A DNA stretch of 64,000 bases from Bryobacterales bacterium. Lineage in GTDB: Bacteria; Acidobacteriota; Terriglobia; Bryobacterales; Bryobacteraceae. Below the pieces are notes generated by a model, which saw nothing but the letters and a program-made list of their open reading frames with translations, did not search any database and was not told where the DNA came from. The stretch's first letter is position 1. Every line of letters begins with the position of its first letter. A program made the position numbers and the translations under genes. The stretch is from NCBI GenBank assembly GCA_003164035.1, contig PLRS01000090.1:18229-82228 (forward strand), in the 5' to 3' direction. This document shows positions 2,955 to 22,515 of this stretch, in pieces.

Positions 2955-4493
2955 ATGAACGCTTTGAGCCGCCGCGACCTCTTTCGTACGGGAGGAGCCA
3001 TGGCCGCCGGCCTCGCTTCGGCCGCATCGGCCGATAGTGCGCCCAGCGTGGCGTCCAGTCCCGAAGTCTACACCAGAATCGGCGTCCGGCCCTTCATCAA
3101 CTGCACCGCCACGCTCACCATCAATGGCGGCTCGCAGATGCTCGATGAAGTCATCGCTACGGTGGAGCAGGCCTCGCATTATCACGTCAACCTGGACGAG
3201 CTGATGGAGAAGGTGGGCGACTGCCTGGCCGGGTTGCTGCAGGTCGAGTGGGGCATCGTCACGTCTGGCGCTGCCGCCGCGCTGGTGCACGCCACCGCCG
3301 GTTGCATTGCCGGCGCCGACCCCGAAAAAATGCAACGCCTGCCGAACCTCGCCGGGCTCAAGGACGAAGTGATCATGCCACGCGAGTCGCGTGTCGTCTA
3401 CGACCATGCCGTCCGCACCCTGGGCGTCAAGATCGTTGAAGTGAATTCGCCCGCCGAGTTGCGGGCCGCCATCGGCTCCCATACCGCCATGATCGAAGTG
3501 TTGGGCAATTACTTCGGCAGCGCCCGGCTCGATCTCAAGGATGTCGCACCCATCGCACGCCAGGCCGGCATTCCTGTTCTGGTCGATGCCGCCGCCGACT
3601 ACCTTGTGGTGCCCAATCCATACCTCGCCTTGGGCGCGGACCTGGTGGCCTATAGCGGCGGCAAGGTCATTCGCGGCCCGCAAAACGCCGGCCTGCTGAT
3701 CGGCCGCCGCGACCTGGTCCGTGCCGCTTGGGCCAACAGCGCCCCTCATCACGCCTTCGGCCGCGGCCTCAAGGTGGGCAAGGAACAGGTGGTAGGCATG
3801 CTGCGCGCGGTGGAGGTTTGGCGTTCCGGGCGCGACCTGGAAGCCGATTTTCGCCAGTGGAAATCGTGGTACGCCGAGATCTCGGGCGAGATCGCGCGCG
3901 TCGCCGGCGTCGTCACCGAAGTCCACGGGCCGGTGCGCGGCGGCCCCTTCCCCACGCTCAACGTCTCCTGGGATCCGGCGAAGATCGGACTTACCGCGGG
4001 CGAGGTCGGACGCATGTTGCTCGATGGCGAGCCGCGCATTATGTCGCATGCCGAAGGCGAAGGGCACGCTTTCCTCATCCGCCCGGTCGCGATGCATCCG
4101 GGCGAGCACAAGCAGGTGGCGCGCCGCCTTTACGAGATCTTCAGCGCCGCCCCGCGCGGCGCCCGGCAGAAGCCGCGGCCGGGGCCGCCGGTGCAGGATA
4201 TCTCCGGCGTCTGGGAAGTGGAGGTCGCTTATGAAGTCGGCCAGTCGCAGCACAAGTTTTTTCTCAACGCCAGTGGCAACCGCGTCACCGGTTCACACCA
4301 AGGCTGGGCGTTCCAGGGCGACCTCGCCGGCGACATCGATGGCGACCGGGTCGAGCTGCGCAGCAGTCTGCCCGCCGGTGGCACACATCTTTCCTACACA
4401 TTCCGCGGCTCCCTCCAGGGAGAGGAAATTGCGGGCGGCGTGGACCTGGGCGAATACGGCCGCGCGAAGTGGCGCGCCCATCGGCACGCCTGA
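2955..4493 (+). CDS. SelA/DgaE-like PLP-dependent enzyme with twin-arginine signal
   Basis: The N-terminus SRRDLFRTGGAMAAGLASA is Tat-like. YSGGKVIRGPQNAGLL resembles the PLP-lysine region of the SelA-like family. Confidence 0.7.
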   Translation: MNALSRRDLFRTGGAMAAGLASAASADSAPSVASSPEVYTRIGVRPFINCTATLTINGGSQMLDEVIATVEQASHYHVNLDELMEKVGDCLAGLLQVEWGIVTSGAAAALVHATAGCIAGADPEKMQRLPNLAGLKDEVIMPRESRVVYDHAVRTLGVKIVEVNSPAELRAAIGSHTAMIEVLGNYFGSARLDLKDVAPIARQAGIPVLVDAAADYLVVPNPYLALGADLVAYSGGKVIRGPQNAGLLIGRRDLVRAAWANSAPHHAFGRGLKVGKEQVVGMLRAVEVWRSGRDLEADFRQWKSWYAEISGEIARVAGVVTEVHGPVRGGPFPTLNVSWDPAKIGLTAGEVGRMLLDGEPRIMSHAEGEGHAFLIRPVAMHPGEHKQVARRLYEIFSAAPRGARQKPRPGPPVQDISGVWEVEVAYEVGQSQHKFFLNASGNRVTGSHQGWAFQGDLAGDIDGDRVELRSSLPAGGTHLSYTFRGSLQGEEIAGGVDLGEYGRAKWRAHRHA

Positions 4494-17234: not shown

Positions 17235-17346
17235 GGCAGCCGCCGCGGGAGGGAACGCATTCACGAGTTTACCGCAAGCGATGGCGACGGCCAGCTTCGC
17301 CTCGGCAACAGGGGTGCTTAACAGATTTGGGGGAGTTAGTTCCCGA

Positions 17347-17432
17347 CAACCGCTCCCTGACGGTCGCGGCTCGGTAAGTGACTGCAAACACATGGTGTCC
17401 GTAACCGAGCCGCGACCATAAGGGAGCGGTTG
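17347..17432. repeat. Family A palindromic repeat (CAACCGCTCCCTGACGGTCGCGGCTCGG ... inverted arm)
   Basis: Two inverted roughly 28-nt arms seen directly. Related copies lie at 27026, 33879, 36119, 48498 and 51903. Confidence 0.85.
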
Positions 17433-17596
17433 CCGGACTCAACTGCGAAATCCCCAGACCGGTTAAGCACGTCGGCGACAGGGCGCGATCGCGTCGTAAT
17501 ATGATGGACGCTGAGGCGTTTGACCGCTCCGCCAAGAGCCTCGGGAGGTTACCGGCGACAATCTCTCCCTGGCACGGCAAGCGGAGCCGTCGGGAT

Positions 17597-18370
17597 ATGA
17601 ACAGCATCGCTATCGTCGCCTTCGGCTGCAGGATTTTAGTGGTTTCGGATTGCGGCCGGGCACTGGAGACGCTCGACCGCTTCCTGCTGCCGTCACTGCC
17701 CAGGGCTGCCCCGGACGAAGCCGGTTCCGAAATCCTTCTTCGTGTCCTGTGCGACGGCGATGGGTTCCAGCTTATTTGCAATGGCGCCGCGGAGCCGGCA
17801 CGCGACTTACGGGCGCTGACGGTTGGCGCCGTGAGGCTGATTGACGAAGCCATCGTGGCACGGCTGTCGAATCTATCCGCCGTTCATGCCGGCGCGGTTC
17901 AGTTTGGGGACAGGGCGCTGCTTTTGCCGGGCGGAACCCATGCCGGAAAATCGGCGCTGGTGGCCGAGCTTTTGCGCTGTGGCGCGGTCTATCTCTCGGA
18001 TGAATACGCTTTGATCGACGATCGGGGACGGGCGCAAGCCTATCCCCGGCCGCTCCTGCTACGCAACGGAGGAGCCGAGCAGGTTCCGCGGCTACCGGAG
18101 GAATTCCACGCCGCCGTGGCGAACGCTCCGGTACCGGTCGGCTGGATTCTCGCTCTCCAATACGACGCCGCGGCAGACTGGCGATTGGCCGCGACGGCGC
18201 AAAGCGAAGCGCTGCTGGCCCTGTTGCGGAACACTCCCCATGTGTTGGCCGAAACGCCGCGGGTATTGCCGGCCCTCACACGCGCCTCGGCCGGCTCCAA
18301 GTGTTACGCCGGCAAACGCGGCGATGCCGCCGATGCCGCCGGGCACATTCTGCGGCTGGTGGCGGAGTGA
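17597..18370 (+). CDS. HPr kinase-like P-loop kinase (HprK-related)
   Basis: VHAGAVQFGDRALLLPGGTHAGKSALVAELLRCGAVYLSDEYALI parallels the HprK C-terminal catalytic core, with Walker A GxxxxGKS. The ATG at 17597 is preferred; the ORF opens at 17501. Confidence 0.7.
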   Translation: MNSIAIVAFGCRILVVSDCGRALETLDRFLLPSLPRAAPDEAGSEILLRVLCDGDGFQLICNGAAEPARDLRALTVGAVRLIDEAIVARLSNLSAVHAGAVQFGDRALLLPGGTHAGKSALVAELLRCGAVYLSDEYALIDDRGRAQAYPRPLLLRNGGAEQVPRLPEEFHAAVANAPVPVGWILALQYDAAADWRLAATAQSEALLALLRNTPHVLAETPRVLPALTRASAGSKCYAGKRGDAADAAGHILRLVAE

Positions 18371-18374
18371 GGGC

Positions 18375-19481
18375 GTGAATCCGAAGCGAATCGATCCGGA
18401 ACGCCTGCTGCAGGCCTGCTTCGGGGACGCCGGGGAAAGCCAGCTCGCGTTCGAAAGCTGCGTTGCCGCCGATATTGCTTCTGGAGGCGCCGGGATCGAA
18501 CCTGCTGCCCGCCGCTTGCTGCCCTTTTTCTATCGGCGCTGGTGCGCGTCCTCTAGCGGCAGTCTGATCGAAACCGCCCACCGCGTTTACCTTGCTACGT
18601 GGCAACAGAACCGCGAACGCATGGCCTCGGCCGCATCGGTGCTCCGCCAACTGGAAAGCGCGGGCATCGAATGCATGCTGCTCAAGGGCGCGGCGCTAAC
18701 GCTCGGTCACTATCGCGACTACGGCCTGCGCTCCATGGGCGACTTCGACCTGCTGATTCATCACGCCGACGTCGAGCGCGCCGCCGGCCTGCTGCTTCAA
18801 GATGGATGGACCGCGGAAGAGGGCTGTTCGGCGGAGGCGATCCGGCGGCAATCCCGCGTGCGCCACGCCTGGCAATTCACCAGGGGCGACACCGAAAACT
18901 GCGATCTTCACTGGCGCCCCCTGGCCAGATGCTATTCTCCGCAAGTCGCCGGCATGTTCTGGGAAGGAGCCGAAGCCATCACGCTGGATGGCCAAGCCGC
19001 TCGGATTCCCTGCCCTACCGACCAGTTCTTTCATGTTTGCGTACATGCCATGCATTGGGAGTGGACCCGGAATCTGTACTGGATCGCCGATGCTCTGACC
19101 GTGGTTCGCGACGCCGAACCCAATTGGGACCGGGCCGCGGCCCTAGCCGCCAGTTCCGAAATGCAGACGCGCTTCACCGAGGCGCTACTGGTTCTCGCCT
19201 CGCACTTCCGTTTGGCCGTCCCCGAACAGGCCTTTGCCGCCGAGGCGCCCGCATGGGAGCGTCGCGAATACATGCTCATGCAGAAGCCGTGTCCGCTGGG
19301 GCCTTTGGACAGTATCGCCTGGCACCTGTACAATTTCCGGCGCTTGCGGCCGTTCGATTCCGAGTGGCGTGGGGCTCCCCGGTGGGTCGCCCTCCCGCAA
19401 TATCTGGCTGCTTTCCTGGATGCCCCAACCTGGGGTTCTCTGCTGGCGAGGTTGTGGACCGAGTTCAGGCTGCGCGTTTGA
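18375..19481 (+). CDS. PF14907-type (NTP_transf_5) uncharacterised nucleotidyltransferase family protein
   Basis: IECMLLKGAALTLGHYRDYGLRSMGDFDLLI ... CDLHWRP matches my memory of this family. The GTG at 18375 lies 4 nt after the kinase stop; an upstream ATG at 18321 is the alternative. Confidence 0.65.
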   Translation: MNPKRIDPERLLQACFGDAGESQLAFESCVAADIASGGAGIEPAARRLLPFFYRRWCASSSGSLIETAHRVYLATWQQNRERMASAASVLRQLESAGIECMLLKGAALTLGHYRDYGLRSMGDFDLLIHHADVERAAGLLLQDGWTAEEGCSAEAIRRQSRVRHAWQFTRGDTENCDLHWRPLARCYSPQVAGMFWEGAEAITLDGQAARIPCPTDQFFHVCVHAMHWEWTRNLYWIADALTVVRDAEPNWDRAAALAASSEMQTRFTEALLVLASHFRLAVPEQAFAAEAPAWERREYMLMQKPCPLGPLDSIAWHLYNFRRLRPFDSEWRGAPRWVALPQYLAAFLDAPTWGSLLARLWTEFRLRV

Positions 19482-19587
19482 AAGACGCAGTCTTTTCCCG
19501 GGGATTGAGGGAAGAGCCTGTCAAATCAAGCCCCGCCGGGCCTATCCCCTTTGTTCATCGGCTCGGCGCTTATCGGTGGTAAATAGG

Positions 19588-19725
19588 ACTACGACAACGA
19601 CTACCACAACGACGACGACCACCACCACAGCGGCGCCCGGGTCGATCGTCTCGGTAACCCCGACGTTCGTCTGCGAAACGTCCGCCCAGGTCACGTTCAC
19701 AATCACCGTTGAAGTGTACGGTTCT
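19588..19725 (+). other. Orphan partial paralogue of the poly-Thr / Ig-like module (14 Thr codons, AAP, then the start of a beta-domain)
   Basis: It translates to T14-AAPGSIVSVTPTFVCETSAQVTFTITVEVYGS. This aligns with T17-PAPPQIQGVSPSTSVCGQNFQSFVITG of the downstream gene. There is no credible start, and similarity is lost after about 19725. Confidence 0.55.
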
Positions 19726-19834
19726 CGACAAAGGCGAACGGCGGCGAACGGTAAGACCAGGACTTTTGTGATAGCATCTGTGGTTTCGAATATTCCCGGT
19801 GCAGGCTTCCCTTCCGCGGAGAACTGGAGAACGC

Positions 19835-20683
19835 ATGAATCGCGACGAATTCCGAGTGCGGCGAGTCGCCTCGGAAAACCTGGTGGTGGAGCAGTTGCCA
19901 GACGGCTCGACCGCGGTGTTCGATACCCGCACCGGGACTATCCATTCCCTGAACGCGAGCGCGGCCGCCGCGTTTGAGGCGTGTCGCGAAAGTTGCACCG
20001 TGGCCTGGGTGGCGCGGGGGATGAGCGAACTGTTGCATGAGGCTGTGACCGAAGAGGTCGCGCTTCGGGCCGTCTCCGAGTTGGAAGCGGCCGGTCTGGT
20101 GGTGTGTTCGGGTTCCGTGGAACTGGACGGCCAGGGCGCCTCGCGGAGGTCCATGCTGCAAGCGGTTTCCACCGTGGCGTTGCCGGTGGTTCTATCGCTC
20201 GGAGCGGCCGAACAGAAGGCTTTTGCGATTGGAGCCGGTTCCGGAACGACGACCAGCACGACTACCACAACGGCAGCTCCCACCACCACCACGACTACGA
20301 CAACAACGACAACAGCGGCCCCAACAACGACTACCACAACAACAACCACGACGACCACCACCACGACGACCACGCCGGCGCCCCCGCAGATTCAAGGTGT
20401 GTCCCCATCCACCTCCGTGTGCGGCCAGAATTTTCAGTCATTCGTAATCACGGGTCTGAACACGAACTGGACTGCATCCACGACCGTGTCGGCGGCTTTG
20501 CCCGGGATGAGCGTCACCTCCGTTACCTTCAACAGCGCTACCCAACTGACCGTGACCGTAGTGGGCTTCACTGGCTACACCTACTATCTCTACTGGGGCG
20601 CTGCCGTGGACCTGGTGGTGACCACCGGCGCCCAGAACCTCCCGACTGGCGGCACCCTCCTCTTCGGAACGTGCGCCGTCTGA
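19835..20683 (+). CDS. PqqD/RRE-like domain fused to Tat-like signal, poly-threonine tract and Ig-like C-terminal domain
   Basis: GGAGAA lies 4 nt before the ATG at 19835. The N-terminal roughly 95 aa (VVEQLPDGSTAVFDTRTGTIHSLNASAAAAFEAC...ELEAAGLV) look PqqD-like. They are followed by SRRSMLQAVSTVALPVVLSLGAAEQKAFA, then 43 residues with 36 Thr, then a beta-rich domain. Confidence 0.7.
   Translation: MNRDEFRVRRVASENLVVEQLPDGSTAVFDTRTGTIHSLNASAAAAFEACRESCTVAWVARGMSELLHEAVTEEVALRAVSELEAAGLVVCSGSVELDGQGASRRSMLQAVSTVALPVVLSLGAAEQKAFAIGAGSGTTTSTTTTTAAPTTTTTTTTTTTAAPTTTTTTTTTTTTTTTTTPAPPQIQGVSPSTSVCGQNFQSFVITGLNTNWTASTTVSAALPGMSVTSVTFNSATQLTVTVVGFTGYTYYLYWGAAVDLVVTTGAQNLPTGGTLLFGTCAV
20246..20374 (+). 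repeat. Poly-threonine coding tract (T3-S-T5-AAP-T11-AAP-T17)
   Basis: Read directly. Mixed ACG/ACC/ACA/ACT codons are used. The motif ACGACTACCACAAC recurs here and again at 19596..19609. Confidence 0.95.
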
Positions 20684-20815
20684 AATCGGGCTTTTCCCGC
20701 CGATACCCTAAAGCAATTGGGGGCCGGCCGCGGCCCCTTGACTTAACACATGATTTCCGAAATACACACCCGTTTCCCGAGGAGCTTGTGGGGCAGGCGA
20801 ATCGCCTAGCCCATA

Positions 20816-22261
20816 ATGTCCGATAACCCCTCCCCCGCAACCCGGCAACTCCCGCTTCCGCGGCTGCTGGAGATCCTTGCTCAGCTCCCACCGTCTTCGC
20901 CTCTCTTCAAACATGCGGCGGGGCTGCTCGATACCTGCCTGGTTCCGGGTTGGGACCAGGTCCCCCGCCAGCGCGCGTCCGGCCCCAAGCGTTTCCTGAC
21001 CATCGGGATGGCCACCTACGACGACTATGACGGCGTCTACTTTTCCGTCCAGGCCATCCGCCTATACCATCCCGAGATTACGCCGGACACGGAAATCCTG
21101 GTGCTCGACAACAACCCTGGGGGACCTTGCTCGGCGGCCTTGAAGAAGCTGGAAGGCCAGGTGCCCGGTTACCGTTACATCGCCTACGATCGATCGACCG
21201 GAACCGCGATTCGCGACCTGCTTTTTCGCGAGGCGAATTCCGATTACGTGCTGGCGATGGATGCGCACGTACTGTTCGCTCCCCATTCGCTGGCCCGGCT
21301 GGTTGCGTTTCTGAAGACACAGCCCGATTCGGTGGACCTTTGGCAAGGCCCACTGCTATACGACAACCAGACCAGCTTGTCCACGCATTTTGCTCCGGAG
21401 TGGTCGGGTGGCATGTACGGCGCCTGGCGGACCGACGAGCGCGGCACCGATCCGGACGCGCCGCCTTTTGAAATCCCCATGCAGGGACTGGGCGCGTTTG
21501 CCTGCCGCAGACAGGCCTGGCCCGGTTTCAATCCACGTTTGAGCGGATTCGGCGGCGAGGAAGGCTACCTTCACGAAAAGATCCGGCGCAATGGCGGCAA
21601 GGTGTTCTGCCTCCCGTTCCTGCGCTGGATGCACCGCTTCGACCGCCCGCAGGGTACCCGCTATCCCGTCTCCTGGAAAGACCGCATCCGCAATTACCTC
21701 ATCGAGTATGATGAGCTCGGTCTCGATCCGGCCCCCGTCGTGGCTCATTTCGAGAAACACCTGGCACCCGGCGAGGCACGCCCGCTGGTGGAAGCCGCCC
21801 AGCGCGAGATCGCGGGCCCCTTCCACATGTTCGACGGGATCTACCGCACCAATGCGCGCGGCCTTGACGACCCGCCCAATATCCGCCACTTCACGGCCGT
21901 GGCGAACCTCTTCGACCCGGATATCGGCCGCGCGCTGGCGCATCGATCGATTCTGGAAGAAGCTCGCCGCCAGTGCCTGACGAGCGTCTTGATCCTGGAC
22001 GACGACTTTGAATTCGGTCCTGAAGCGATCGAAAAGTTCGACGTTGCGCTCCGCGGTTTGCGCGGATGCGAGTGGCGGGGATGCCGCCTCCCCGGCGGGA
22101 TGGCGTTTGCCGGCGGGGTCTTCAGCCGCGCTCTGGCCGAGATTCCCACAACGCCTTCCGCGATCGCGTTGTGGCTGCGCGAGCGGAGCGGTCTGGATGA
22201 ATATTACACGCAAGCCTTCGCCAACGCTCCCGAGCAGGCCGATGCGAAACTTCGCCTATAG
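20816..22261 (+). CDS. two-domain glycosyltransferase (N-terminal GT-A/GT2-like with D-x-H, C-terminal GT25-like)
   Basis: The N-terminal half has EILVLDNNPGG, LAMDAHVLF and GFGGEEGYLHEKIRRNGG, which are GT-A features. The C-terminal IGRALAHRSILEEARRQCLTSVLILDDDFEF resembles the GT25 signature GCxLSH...ILEDD. Confidence 0.65.
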   Translation: MSDNPSPATRQLPLPRLLEILAQLPPSSPLFKHAAGLLDTCLVPGWDQVPRQRASGPKRFLTIGMATYDDYDGVYFSVQAIRLYHPEITPDTEILVLDNNPGGPCSAALKKLEGQVPGYRYIAYDRSTGTAIRDLLFREANSDYVLAMDAHVLFAPHSLARLVAFLKTQPDSVDLWQGPLLYDNQTSLSTHFAPEWSGGMYGAWRTDERGTDPDAPPFEIPMQGLGAFACRRQAWPGFNPRLSGFGGEEGYLHEKIRRNGGKVFCLPFLRWMHRFDRPQGTRYPVSWKDRIRNYLIEYDELGLDPAPVVAHFEKHLAPGEARPLVEAAQREIAGPFHMFDGIYRTNARGLDDPPNIRHFTAVANLFDPDIGRALAHRSILEEARRQCLTSVLILDDDFEFGPEAIEKFDVALRGLRGCEWRGCRLPGGMAFAGGVFSRALAEIPTTPSAIALWLRERSGLDEYYTQAFANAPEQADAKLRL

Positions 22262-22359
22262 ACAGTCGGGTCGAGGATAGCTTTCACTACCCTCCGCCCG
22301 CCTTGTCCCCGCTCTTGGCTCCCTCCTTGCCATCTGTTACACTCAGATCCGTAAGTCGA

Positions 22360-22515
22360 AATTTTCGCTGGTGCACGGGAAGCTGGTGAGAGTCCAGCAC
22401 GGCCCCGCCACTGTAAGCGTGGAGGTTCGGTCGCGGCAGTCCACTGTTCCTCGCGGAATGGGAAGGCAGATCGAACCGCTGAAGCGCAAGTCAGGAGACC
22501 GGCCGGCGAAATCGC
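22360..22515 (+). promoter_or_regulatory. cobalamin (B12) riboswitch
   Basis: GGTGCACGGGAAGCTGGTGAGAGTCCAGCACGGCCCCGCCACTGT core plus a B12-box-like AAGTCAGGAGACCGGCC. P1 pairs TTTCGCTGG with CCGGCGAAA. The RBS GAGGGAGGAG and the ATG of the receptor gene lie just downstream. Confidence 0.85.

Follow-up and report, generated by a model that had tools for sequence, protein, structure and literature searches.

In the window, the 64,000-nucleotide stretch of contig PLRS01000090.1 from a Bryobacterales bacterium that was analysed here, an open reading frame (ORF) starting at ATG 19835 encodes a protein that, as judged from its sequence, belongs to a large, undescribed family. Its members join an N-terminal PqqD-like domain, that is, a putative recognition element (RRE) of peptides that are ribosomally synthesised and post-translationally modified (RiPPs), to an internal segment resembling a signal of the pathway for twin-arginine translocation (Tat) and to a variable tail. 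We propose, in a reading whose chances we consider evenly balanced, that this fusion protein, with its built-in RRE, would be the substrate of a small RiPP-like cassette whose enzymes would act on it in the cytoplasm before it leaves through Tat and is cut at an AxA site. An earlier reading of the same DNA, made from its letters and ORFs (the sequence-only reading), had offered as one option that the RRE-like domain is a cleavable leader holding the substrate for modification before Tat export. We infer support for that option from three sets of observations: the presence of the Tat-signal features other than the N-terminal position, the lack of export signals in the neighbouring enzymes and the extracytoplasmic look of the tails. 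The size of the family, an invariant Ser five residues after the AxA site, the highly variable tail and a glycosyltransferase gene that tracks the Thr run were not part of the earlier reading.

Conservation and sequence features of the internal segment

The segment at 20138-20227 (+) translates as ASRRSMLQAVSTVALPVVLSLGAAEQKAFA, identical to the translation reported before, and comprises residues 102-131 of the 282 encoded, with the twin arginine at R104-R105 when numbered from ATG 19835. It lies, as had been described, about 100 residues into the ORF and behind the PqqD-like domain, for which AlphaFold2 (AF2) modelled an RRE fold with a predicted local distance difference test (pLDDT) above 90 over residues 11-90.

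A word-indexed search with residues 1-137 gave 25 relatives, and a profile of the PqqD domain plus the segment was then searched against 1.84 billion cluster representatives, of which 3594 matched at E ≤ 1e-3, 377 at E ≤ 1e-10 and 55 at E ≤ 1e-30. Among the 150 top-scoring representatives, most aligned to the entire profile, from position 1 to about 136. The genome matches were metagenome-assembled genomes of Bryobacterales, Bryobacteraceae, Solibacteraceae and Terriglobia, and the source annotations of the relatives read 'hypothetical protein'. A profile of the segment alone (43 residues), searched against 5.8 billion sequences, had too little power and gave 2 matches. Where individual relatives or related loci have to be told apart, they are cited below by P and L numbers, respectively.

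Conservation was counted in an hmmalign alignment of 169 sequences, the denominators varying by column. R104 was present in 159/159 and R105 in 157/158 of the aligned relatives; the orthologues therefore retain the pair, on which the sequence-only reading had made its case depend. This invariance exceeds what membrane topology needs, because a simple positive-inside flank would permit exchange of Lys and Arg. Around the pair, Ser or Thr at 103 (133/158) and L108 (116/155) were frequent, and within the hydrophobic stretch P117 (142/148) and V119 (131/146). Towards the predicted cleavage site, the counts were 99/130 for E126, 123/130 for Q127, 109/130 for Arg or Lys at 128 and 95/129 for A129, this last position (-3) being Ala, Val, Gly or Thr in 113/129, while A131 (-1) was found in 127/128. 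Beyond it, S136 (+5 after AxA) was present in 118/120, with Ala at +3 in 80 and Gly at +4 in 71 of about 126 sequences. The twin arginine lies at a family median of residue 101. Distant members show the same features in a different sequence, e.g., ...SRREFFLKAGAAAAVMVPMVLAITAPTPAYA|QS, LSRREMLKTMGVAVALLPVVTSIVAPTPAQA|QT and HSRREFFLKAGAAAAVMVPMVLAITAPTPAYA|QS, having APTPAxA in place of AAEQRAYA and retaining the RR pair, the hydrophobic stretch and AxA. The S-R-R-x-M-L-Q motif, hydrophobic core and A-x-A end noticed in the window protein are thus borne out and conserved family-wide. It should be considered that the relatives were gathered with a profile that itself contains the segment; the resulting selection bias is small, since the scores of 69-200 bits come mainly from the PqqD part of about 90 residues and owe just a few bits to the two arginines.

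Six-frame translation of the 64-kb window (ORFs of at least 100 residues) revealed an xRRx pair followed by two hydrophobic residues and at least 13 uncharged residues at two places only, this segment and MNALSRRDLFRTGGAMAAGLASAASA, the N-terminal signal of the gene at 2955-4493 (+). On these sequence grounds, the segment is not a chance motif. The latter gene encodes a 512-residue pyridoxal phosphate-dependent enzyme (aminotransferase class V or SelA-like), and since its N-terminus is a textbook Tat signal, the source organism appears to use ordinary Tat signals.

Tat signals are characterised by the motif SRRxFLK, an h-region that spans at least 12 residues and has a lower hydrophobicity than in signals of the general secretory (Sec) pathway, a Gly, Ser or Pro helix breaker, a basic c-region and an AxA site (PMC7317946), and the default regular expression of TatP is RR.[FGAVML][LITMVF] (PMC1182353). 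These traits were scored in the 147 relatives with at least 35 residues after the RR pair. The TatP expression matched 132/147, at least 13 uncharged residues were found inside the 24 residues after RR in 140/147, and AxA lay 16-42 residues past RR in 113/147, with a basic residue just before the cleavage site in 88 of these 113. On average, 28.7 residues separated RR from the cleavage site. The window segment itself has the motif (SRRSMLQ), an h-region of 16 uncharged residues with P117 and the c-region EQKAFA. Among ten segments excised from relatives, four passed the cut-off (16.7 bits) of the NCBIfam model TIGR01409 (TAT_signal_seq) with 17.6, 17.9, 18.4 and 22.0 bits and a fifth reached 16.2 bits; P0019 scored 13.3 bits. 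The other matches to the excised segments were mostly N-terminal regions of Tat-related entries (formate_TAT, MelC1 and a TatB-type protein), together with a few unrelated weak matches. In terms of sequence, all the traits of a Tat signal are present across the family except the N-terminal position.

The recognition domain, the tails and the neighbouring enzymes

In the AF2 model, strands and helices span residues 7-92 and form the three-stranded sheet and three helices, over about 85-90 residues, of a winged-helix RRE. A Foldseek search matched this domain to the lasso peptide RRE TbiB1 in its leader complex (5v1v_A; target-normalised TM-score, TMt, 0.70; root mean square deviation 2.9 Å) and to the RRE-containing TigE. 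The assignment to PqqD is weak by sequence and firm by predicted fold: TIGR04353 matched 22/26 relatives at E ≤ 0.01, and no PqqD-type match rose above the curated cut-offs in the window protein, 26 close relatives and 10 distant relatives. Other RiPP cassettes defined by bioinformatics are weakly linked to the family. The PqqD domain of one close relative matched 'actinodefensin-associated protein B', and distant members matched ScmD; at L020 (3275-4060), the kinase-like gene had a weak match to Pfam ScmC, of the SynChlorMet cassette. The pairing of HprK-like and PqqD-like proteins seems to recur across several uncharacterised systems.

The first six residues past AxA are conserved (x-x-A-G-S-G), and beyond them the tails share nothing. 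Their length ranges from 4 to 262 residues (median 54), and Thr makes up 20% of their residues, Gly 11%, Pro 10% and Ser 9.5%. They include pure Thr runs, Thr runs followed by a GxNTHF-type Ig-like domain (25 members), His/Asp-rich and Pro-rich stretches, SpaA- or CarboxypepD_reg-like domains (e.g., P0037) and six-Cys knottin-like mini-proteins (e.g., P0148, ...SCIPKDGACTSGAQCCSGFCRPSGVCA). In the window protein, the Thr run is disordered in the AF2 model and is followed by a C-terminal domain with strands at pLDDT 75-91, for which Foldseek gave Ig-like matches; no Pfam or NCBIfam family matched this domain. The GxNTHF type usually has one early Cys and one at the extreme C-terminus. Across the family, the number of Cys in the tail was even in 43 members and odd in 8. 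Taken with the Ig-like, SpaA-like and Cys-rich domains, these even counts make the tails look extracytoplasmic. The distant members P0148 (L017, 5001-5480), P0161, P0163, P0164, P0167 and P0139 have tails that are Cys-rich, knottin-like mini-proteins with the pattern C..C..CC..C..C. A further sub-family (L037-L047 and L051, also L022 and P0171) carries a conserved basic tail peptide of 23-29 residues, Q.A.S.DYR.PRANVPK.HKR.F, with the kinase gene downstream, the nucleotidyltransferase gene upstream on the opposite strand and no glycosyltransferase gene; from its sequence, this tail looks like a small secreted, possibly phosphorylated, peptide.

Three enzyme genes accompany the fusion gene in the window: an HprK-related kinase-like gene, a gene of the nucleotidyltransferase fold (NTP_transf_5) and a glycosyltransferase family 2 (GT2) gene. 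The kinase-like proteins keep VHAG.V, LLPG.S..GKS, Y.SDEYA and HPYPR, corresponding to the His, the P-loop Lys and the acidic pair of HprK-type kinases, a motif that has been described (PMC9266682). Neighbourhoods were compared by tblastn against 51 related loci, in most of which the kinase-like gene adjoins the fusion gene and NTP_transf_5 is linked as well. In 12 loci the fusion gene is immediately followed by the GT2 gene, and each of these loci has a Thr-containing tail; in the counts given below, GT2 adjacency tracks Thr-rich tails. The kinase, the nucleotidyltransferase and the GT2 protein of the window show neither a signal peptide nor a membrane segment (best window at least +6.8 kcal/mol, calculated as described below); the three enzymes are therefore predicted to be cytoplasmic and would have to act before export. 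With its first 137 residues conserved, its tail variable and these three genes adjacent, the fusion protein has the layout of a RiPP precursor.

A characterised precedent for such enzymes is found in pseudomycoidin, where a Ser in the linear lasso precursor is phosphorylated by PsmK, an HprK-type kinase, and where attachment of one or two hexoses to the phosphate requires PsmN, an uncharacterised NTP transferase (PMC6993621). By analogy, the kinase and NTP_transf_5 proteins of the window would act on the invariant Ser at +5, by phosphorylation and then by placing a hexose on the phosphate, and GT2 would glycosylate the Thr run where the tail has one. The PqqD/RRE domain (residues 1-92) would stay in the cytoplasm as the docking handle for these enzymes. 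Residues 103-131 would then serve as a Tat-type signal, inserting into TatBC as a hairpin with the PqqD domain left on the cytoplasmic side, and the modified or folded C-terminal part would cross the membrane; Tat would be a sensible route because the cargo is already folded or carries bulky adducts. Signal peptidase I would finally cut after AFA (A131), freeing the Thr-rich stalk with a disulfide-stapled Ig-like domain. In other members, the released part may be a 23-residue basic peptide, a Cys-rich mini-protein or another cargo.

A more ambitious version of this proposal, which we regard as doubtful, is that the family forms a new class of self-targeting export substrates. Here the RRE would recruit the kinase, NTP_transf_5 and GT2, which would place a phospho-glycan on the Ser at +5 and O-glycans on Thr, and it would mask its own Tat signal in cis until these modifications are complete; Tat export and signal peptidase would then release the cargo, be it a mucin-like glycoprotein, a basic peptide of 23 residues or a knottin-like mini-protein. 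Such masking in cis would be a built-in form of Tat proofreading.

The proposal weighed against other readings

Several observations weigh against modification followed by Tat export. The N-terminal position, which is the defining feature of Tat signals, is lacking, as the RR pair stands at residue 104 behind a folded PqqD domain, and we are not aware of any Tat signal that follows a soluble domain already folded. TIGR01409 gave no match to the window's own segment, and P117, VVLSL, E126 and Q127 are conserved beyond the need of a generic signal peptide. Tails of merely 4-25 residues, as found in some members, would be an odd Tat cargo. AF2 gave no confident conformation for the segment and no stable docking onto the PqqD domain. 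Among the family assignments, the fusion protein scored 17.9 bits with Pfam PqqD PF05402 (E = 0.004), below the gathering threshold of 23.4, and 24.3 with NCBIfam TIGR04353 (E = 4.5e-5), below the cut-off of 35, while the kinase-like protein scored 44 with TIGR04352 (E = 1.4e-11), the curated cut-off being 200. PsmK and PsmN form the one characterised precedent for a kinase and 'nucleotidyltransferase' pair, an analogy that presumes PsmN to belong to PF14907. Finally, the test linking GT2 to Thr-rich tails (11/12 distinct loci with the GT2 gene vs. 0/13 without it; Fisher p = 2.7e-6) ignores phylogeny; the twelfth GT2 locus has TTTT right after GSG.

Of the other ways to explain the segment, an uncleaved membrane anchor survives best, although we consider it unlikely. 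The protein would be inserted N-in/C-out, via Sec/YidC or Tat, with PqqD on the inner face and the tail displayed outside. This would fit the arginines on the cytoplasmic side of the hydrophobic stretch and the extracytoplasmic look of the tail domains; the conserved Pro and polar residues of the stretch could mean helix-helix contacts, and uncleaved N-terminal anchors inserted by Tat do exist, as in Rieske proteins. The insertion energy speaks otherwise. It was calculated crudely, by summing Hessa biological-scale values over the best 19-residue window, and the energies are approximate, the separation nevertheless being large. The window segment gave +4.4 kcal/mol and the family a median of +4.3 kcal/mol, with a value below 0 in 1/151 relatives, while by the same calculation six Escherichia coli Tat signals gave +4.7 to +7.5 and three true anchors -2.3 to -3.2 kcal/mol, so that the family is comparable to the Tat signals and about 7 kcal/mol away from true anchors. 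A plain transmembrane anchor, the outcome that the sequence-only reading had named as telling against itself, is thus disfavoured. In addition, the uncharged core from K/Q109 to E126 has just 16 residues, vs. the helix of about 19 or more residues and favourable energy of a bitopic anchor. The Ala at -1 (127/128) and the small residue at -3 in most members argue for cleavage by signal peptidase, a topology signal needs no strict RR invariance, and tails of 4-25 residues would make poor displayed domains.

The same extra conservation that was counted above as a point against a plain Tat signal suggests that the segment is, additionally or alternatively, a recognition motif. In its strict form, this reading holds that RR...PVVLSL...EQ+A[YF]A is a cytoplasmic leader motif read by PqqD/RRE, the kinase or the nucleotidyltransferase, that no export takes place and that the likeness to Tat signals is coincidental; we find this quite unlikely. 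It accounts for the over-conservation of P117, V119, VVLSL, E126 and Q127 relative to generic signal peptides, and lasso tailoring kinases act on precursors that still bear their leader. A leader bound by an RRE adds a beta-strand to it, and a strand at 119-122 is present in the AF2 model of the full-length protein. Docking of the segment in cis on the PqqD sheet was considered on this basis and rejected: the short strand (pLDDT about 64-71) appeared only in the full-length model, and with the N-terminal 140 residues alone it was lost, with pLDDT below 50 over residues 96-128. Moreover, the distant members swap AAEQRAYA for APTPAxA but retain RR, the hydrophobic stretch and AxA, four of the ten excised segments pass a curated Tat-signal model, and an oxidising, extracytoplasmic destination is indicated by the even numbers of Cys and by tails of the Ig-like, SpaA-like and knottin-like types. 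The roles of leader and export signal are compatible and not mutually exclusive, and the sequence pattern suggests that the segment doubles as a recognition element, being leader as well as signal.

Use of the segment as a cleavable internal signal by SecA/SecYEG, post-translationally, is in our view improbable. Sec and Tat signals overlap in their range of hydrophobicity, and both pathways are engaged by many signals (PMC7317946); the signals of OmpA, MalE and PhoA were likewise positive on our crude scale. Against this stand the invariance of the RR pair, the conservation of its SRRxhhK context and the presence of a basic 'Sec-avoidance' residue in the c-region of 109/130 members; a pre-folded domain of 92 residues and a cargo glycosylated or folded in the cytoplasm would also suit Tat better than the narrow Sec channel.

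The production of two proteins from one ORF, a full-length one and another initiated at GTG 20117 or nearby as a classical Tat pre-protein, had been the second option of the sequence-only reading and is very improbable: GTG 20117 is indeed in frame (it encodes V95), 9 codons ahead of RR, and L008 has an ATG 7 codons ahead and L013 an ATG and a GTG 9 and 4 codons ahead, but no Shine-Dalgarno-like sequence precedes GTG 20117, such sequences being found before the N-terminal starts, and in 5/11 related loci (L001, L004, L006, L012 and L015) there is no in-frame ATG, GTG or TTG within 12 codons of RR. The internal start is thus not conserved across the related loci, and the TTG and GTG codons that recur upstream specify Leu and Val residues that are conserved in the last PqqD helix. 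Comparison of orthologues for separate PqqD and exported genes gave no solid split case either, PqqD and the segment being fused in essentially all of the 150 best representatives. Four candidates were discarded: P0137, apparently PqqD only, is a fusion disrupted by a frameshift, with its RR and ...SLTVGEQKAHAERAAS pieces found in the two remaining frames; P0012, beside ruvB, is an orphan that is truncated; P0171 is a fragment cut off by a contig end; and P0172, a possible stand-alone Tat-like leader of 57 residues, is a single weak match (E = 0.59).

Known systems and layout of the locus

The proposed route through cytoplasmic modification and Tat export has partial counterparts among known systems. 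With Tat signal peptides, the segment shares the motif, the length and hydrophobicity of the h-region, the helix-breaking Pro, the basic c-region and AxA; it differs in lying about 100 residues inside the protein, in the family-specific P117, VVLSL, E126 and Q127 and in the invariant Ser at +5. The Tat proofreading chaperones TorD, DmsD and NapD are separate proteins of unrelated folds that bind the Tat signal in trans. Like them, the PqqD domain would be a cytoplasmic domain dedicated to a Tat substrate until maturation is done; unlike them, it would bind its own signal in cis, a suggestion to which AF2 gave no support. NHLP and Nif11 leaders also combine a conserved leader of about 100 residues and a fixed cleavage motif with a highly variable core, but they are not RREs, end in GG cut by transporter-associated peptidases and carry no export signal.

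In actinobacterial Rieske proteins, a twin-arginine element works when it is not N-terminal (PMC3471235, PMC5449189). That likeness is limited: Sec-inserted helices precede the Rieske element, which stays as the last membrane helix, whereas here a soluble RRE precedes it and AxA is conserved. PqqD-like B1 RRE proteins are known or suspected to assist tailoring enzymes (PMC9266682), and in the HPr-rel-A system (kinase A, TIGR04352, and a PqqD chaperone, TIGR04353) as in PsmK/PsmN an HprK-like kinase, a PqqD-like domain and a nucleotidyltransferase stand side by side. In contrast to these, the window proteins score below the cut-offs given above, a lasso cyclase and a B2 protease are absent, the presumed substrate carries the PqqD domain as a fusion, and the conserved Ser is internal rather than C-terminal. 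From its sequences, the window cassette looks like a relative of HPr-rel-A that is distinct from it, with a 190-residue extension on the PqqD domain. Bufferins are RiPP precursors modified in the cytoplasm and exported via a general Sec signal peptide (PMC11626156); cytoplasmic RRE-assisted modification, housekeeping export and a signal peptidase cut are what we propose here too, but with a Tat-type internal signal in place of the Sec-type N-terminal one and with the RRE inside the substrate and not on a partner protein. No Pfam or NCBIfam model covers the PqqD-signal-cargo architecture, and in the full-text literature, which leaves many subscription papers outside its scope, we found nothing on 'HPr-rel-A' or 'HprK-related kinase' and nothing relevant linking PqqD/RRE domains with Tat signals or on PF14907. 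Each part is known by itself, but as far as these searches go the arrangement is not: a substrate-borne RRE ahead of a Tat-type signal at an internal position, a fixed Ser and cargo that can be swapped.

If the proposal is true, a Tat signal would for the first time be known to function after a folded soluble domain, which would also be a natural test of the hairpin or loop model of Tat insertion, and a RiPP recognition element would for the first time be known within its own substrate. It would also supply a candidate for the substrate, and for the target residue, of the HprK-like kinase, PqqD and NTP_transf_5 genes, whose pairing is widespread but uncharacterised, and a possible reason for the use of Tat, namely the export of products already phospho-glycosylated or O-glycosylated in the cytoplasm. 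The conserved 'leader' of 137 residues with its exchangeable cargo could serve as a tag for secretion and modification. Members of the family abound in soil Acidobacteriota (Bryobacterales, Solibacteraceae), a group in which the glycoproteins of the surface and the secreted ones have hardly been studied.

The coordinates of the fusion gene, its parts and its neighbours are provided in Table 1.

Table 1. Annotated features of the fusion gene and its surroundings in the window.
Feature	Position	Strand	Basis and remarks
HprK-related P-loop kinase-like gene, 289 residues	17501-18370	+	NCBIfam TIGR04352 HprK_rel_A
NTP_transf_5 nucleotidyltransferase-fold gene (long ORF)	18240-19481	+	Pfam PF14907, E = 3e-37; GDFDLL motif in translation
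Orphan fragment: run of 13 Thr, AAP and first ~30 residues of an Ig-like cargo	19575-19730	+	Translation NRTTTTTTTTTTTTTAAPGSIVSVTPTFVCETSAQVTFTITVEVYG
Fusion ORF, 282 residues	19835-20683	+	ATG 19835, GGAG 5 nt upstream; close homologues share the same start Met (MNRDE...)
PqqD/RRE-like winged-helix domain, residues 1-92	19835-20110	+	Weak Pfam/NCBIfam scores; AF2; Foldseek
Variable linker, residues 93-102, holding GTG 20117	20111-20140	+	Columns poorly conserved; AF2 pLDDT <50 at residues 98-102
Twin-arginine motif, S103-R-R-S-M-L-Q109	20141-20161	+	RR invariance in relatives; TatP expression
Putative h-region AVSTVALPVVLSLGAA, 16 uncharged residues, conserved P117 and VVLSL motif	20162-20209	+	Insertion energy +4.4 kcal/mol
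Putative c-region EQKAFA, basic residue and AxA; predicted cleavage after A131 (20227/20228)	20210-20227	+	Column counts
Conserved predicted mature start IGAGSG, residues 132-137; S136 (20240-20242) candidate modification site	20228-20245	+	Column counts
Thr-rich linker, residues 138-184, 38 of 47 residues Thr	20246-20386	+	Translation; AF2 disordered
Predicted C-terminal Ig-like beta-sandwich cargo domain, residues 185-282, Cys196 and Cys280, plus stop codon	20387-20683	+	AF2; Foldseek
GC palindrome GGGGCCGGCCGCGGCCCC, perfect, 18 nt, in the 133-nt gap between fusion and GT2 genes	20720-20737		Sequence
GT2-family glycosyltransferase gene, 481 residues, GT25-like C-terminal part	20816-22261	+	Pfam PF00535, E = 1.4e-10

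The usual gene order in the related loci is fusion, GT2 (if present), kinase and nucleotidyltransferase, and the order of the window (kinase, nucleotidyltransferase, fragment, fusion, GT2) differs from that of L008, L009, L011, L012, L013 and L024. The divergent order and the orphan fragment together suggest a local rearrangement or duplication. This remnant, between the nucleotidyltransferase stop at 19481 and the fusion start, reads NRT(13)AAPGSIVSVTPTFVCETSAQVTFTITVEVYG; it has neither the PqqD nor the RR part, lacks a proper end and runs out of frame into the next gene. Its pattern, Tn-AAP-..I.SV.P...C....I.IT, fits the cargo starts of P0031, P0128 and L009, and the DNA of its Thr run is 80-86% identical to that of the Thr run in the fusion gene. 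Judged by these sequence matches, it is probably a decayed or recombined second copy of the cargo.

The long ORF of the nucleotidyltransferase overlaps the kinase gene by 130 nt, and its homologues align only from ORF residues 42-56. Its true start is probably GTG 18375, which is preceded by GGAG; since this likely start lies 5 nt after the kinase stop, the two genes may be translationally coupled. Sequence searches of solved structures with the kinase, the nucleotidyltransferase and GT2 gave nothing useful, and a promoter and terminator scan of 17300-22500 revealed nothing beyond shuffled expectation. The palindrome GGGGCCGGCCGCGGCCCC may act as an mRNA hairpin after the substrate gene, setting the ratio of substrate to enzyme. 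An antisense ORF of 267 residues rich in Val runs, at 19570-20373 (-), is the reverse complement of the ACN codons for Thr and not a gene.

Among the other loci, L017, which holds a distant Cys-rich member, has as neighbours the kinase-like gene, a Peptidase_C25 gene (gingipain-type, 1110 residues) and NTP_transf_5. ORFs of 79 residues precede the fusion gene in L001 and in L006 and are mutually unrelated. Decayed cassettes were found at L016 (8001-8981) and L050 (7001-7138 onward), in which the PqqD frame breaks after about 26 conserved residues and the sequence continues into fragments of the GT2 C-terminal part and the kinase.

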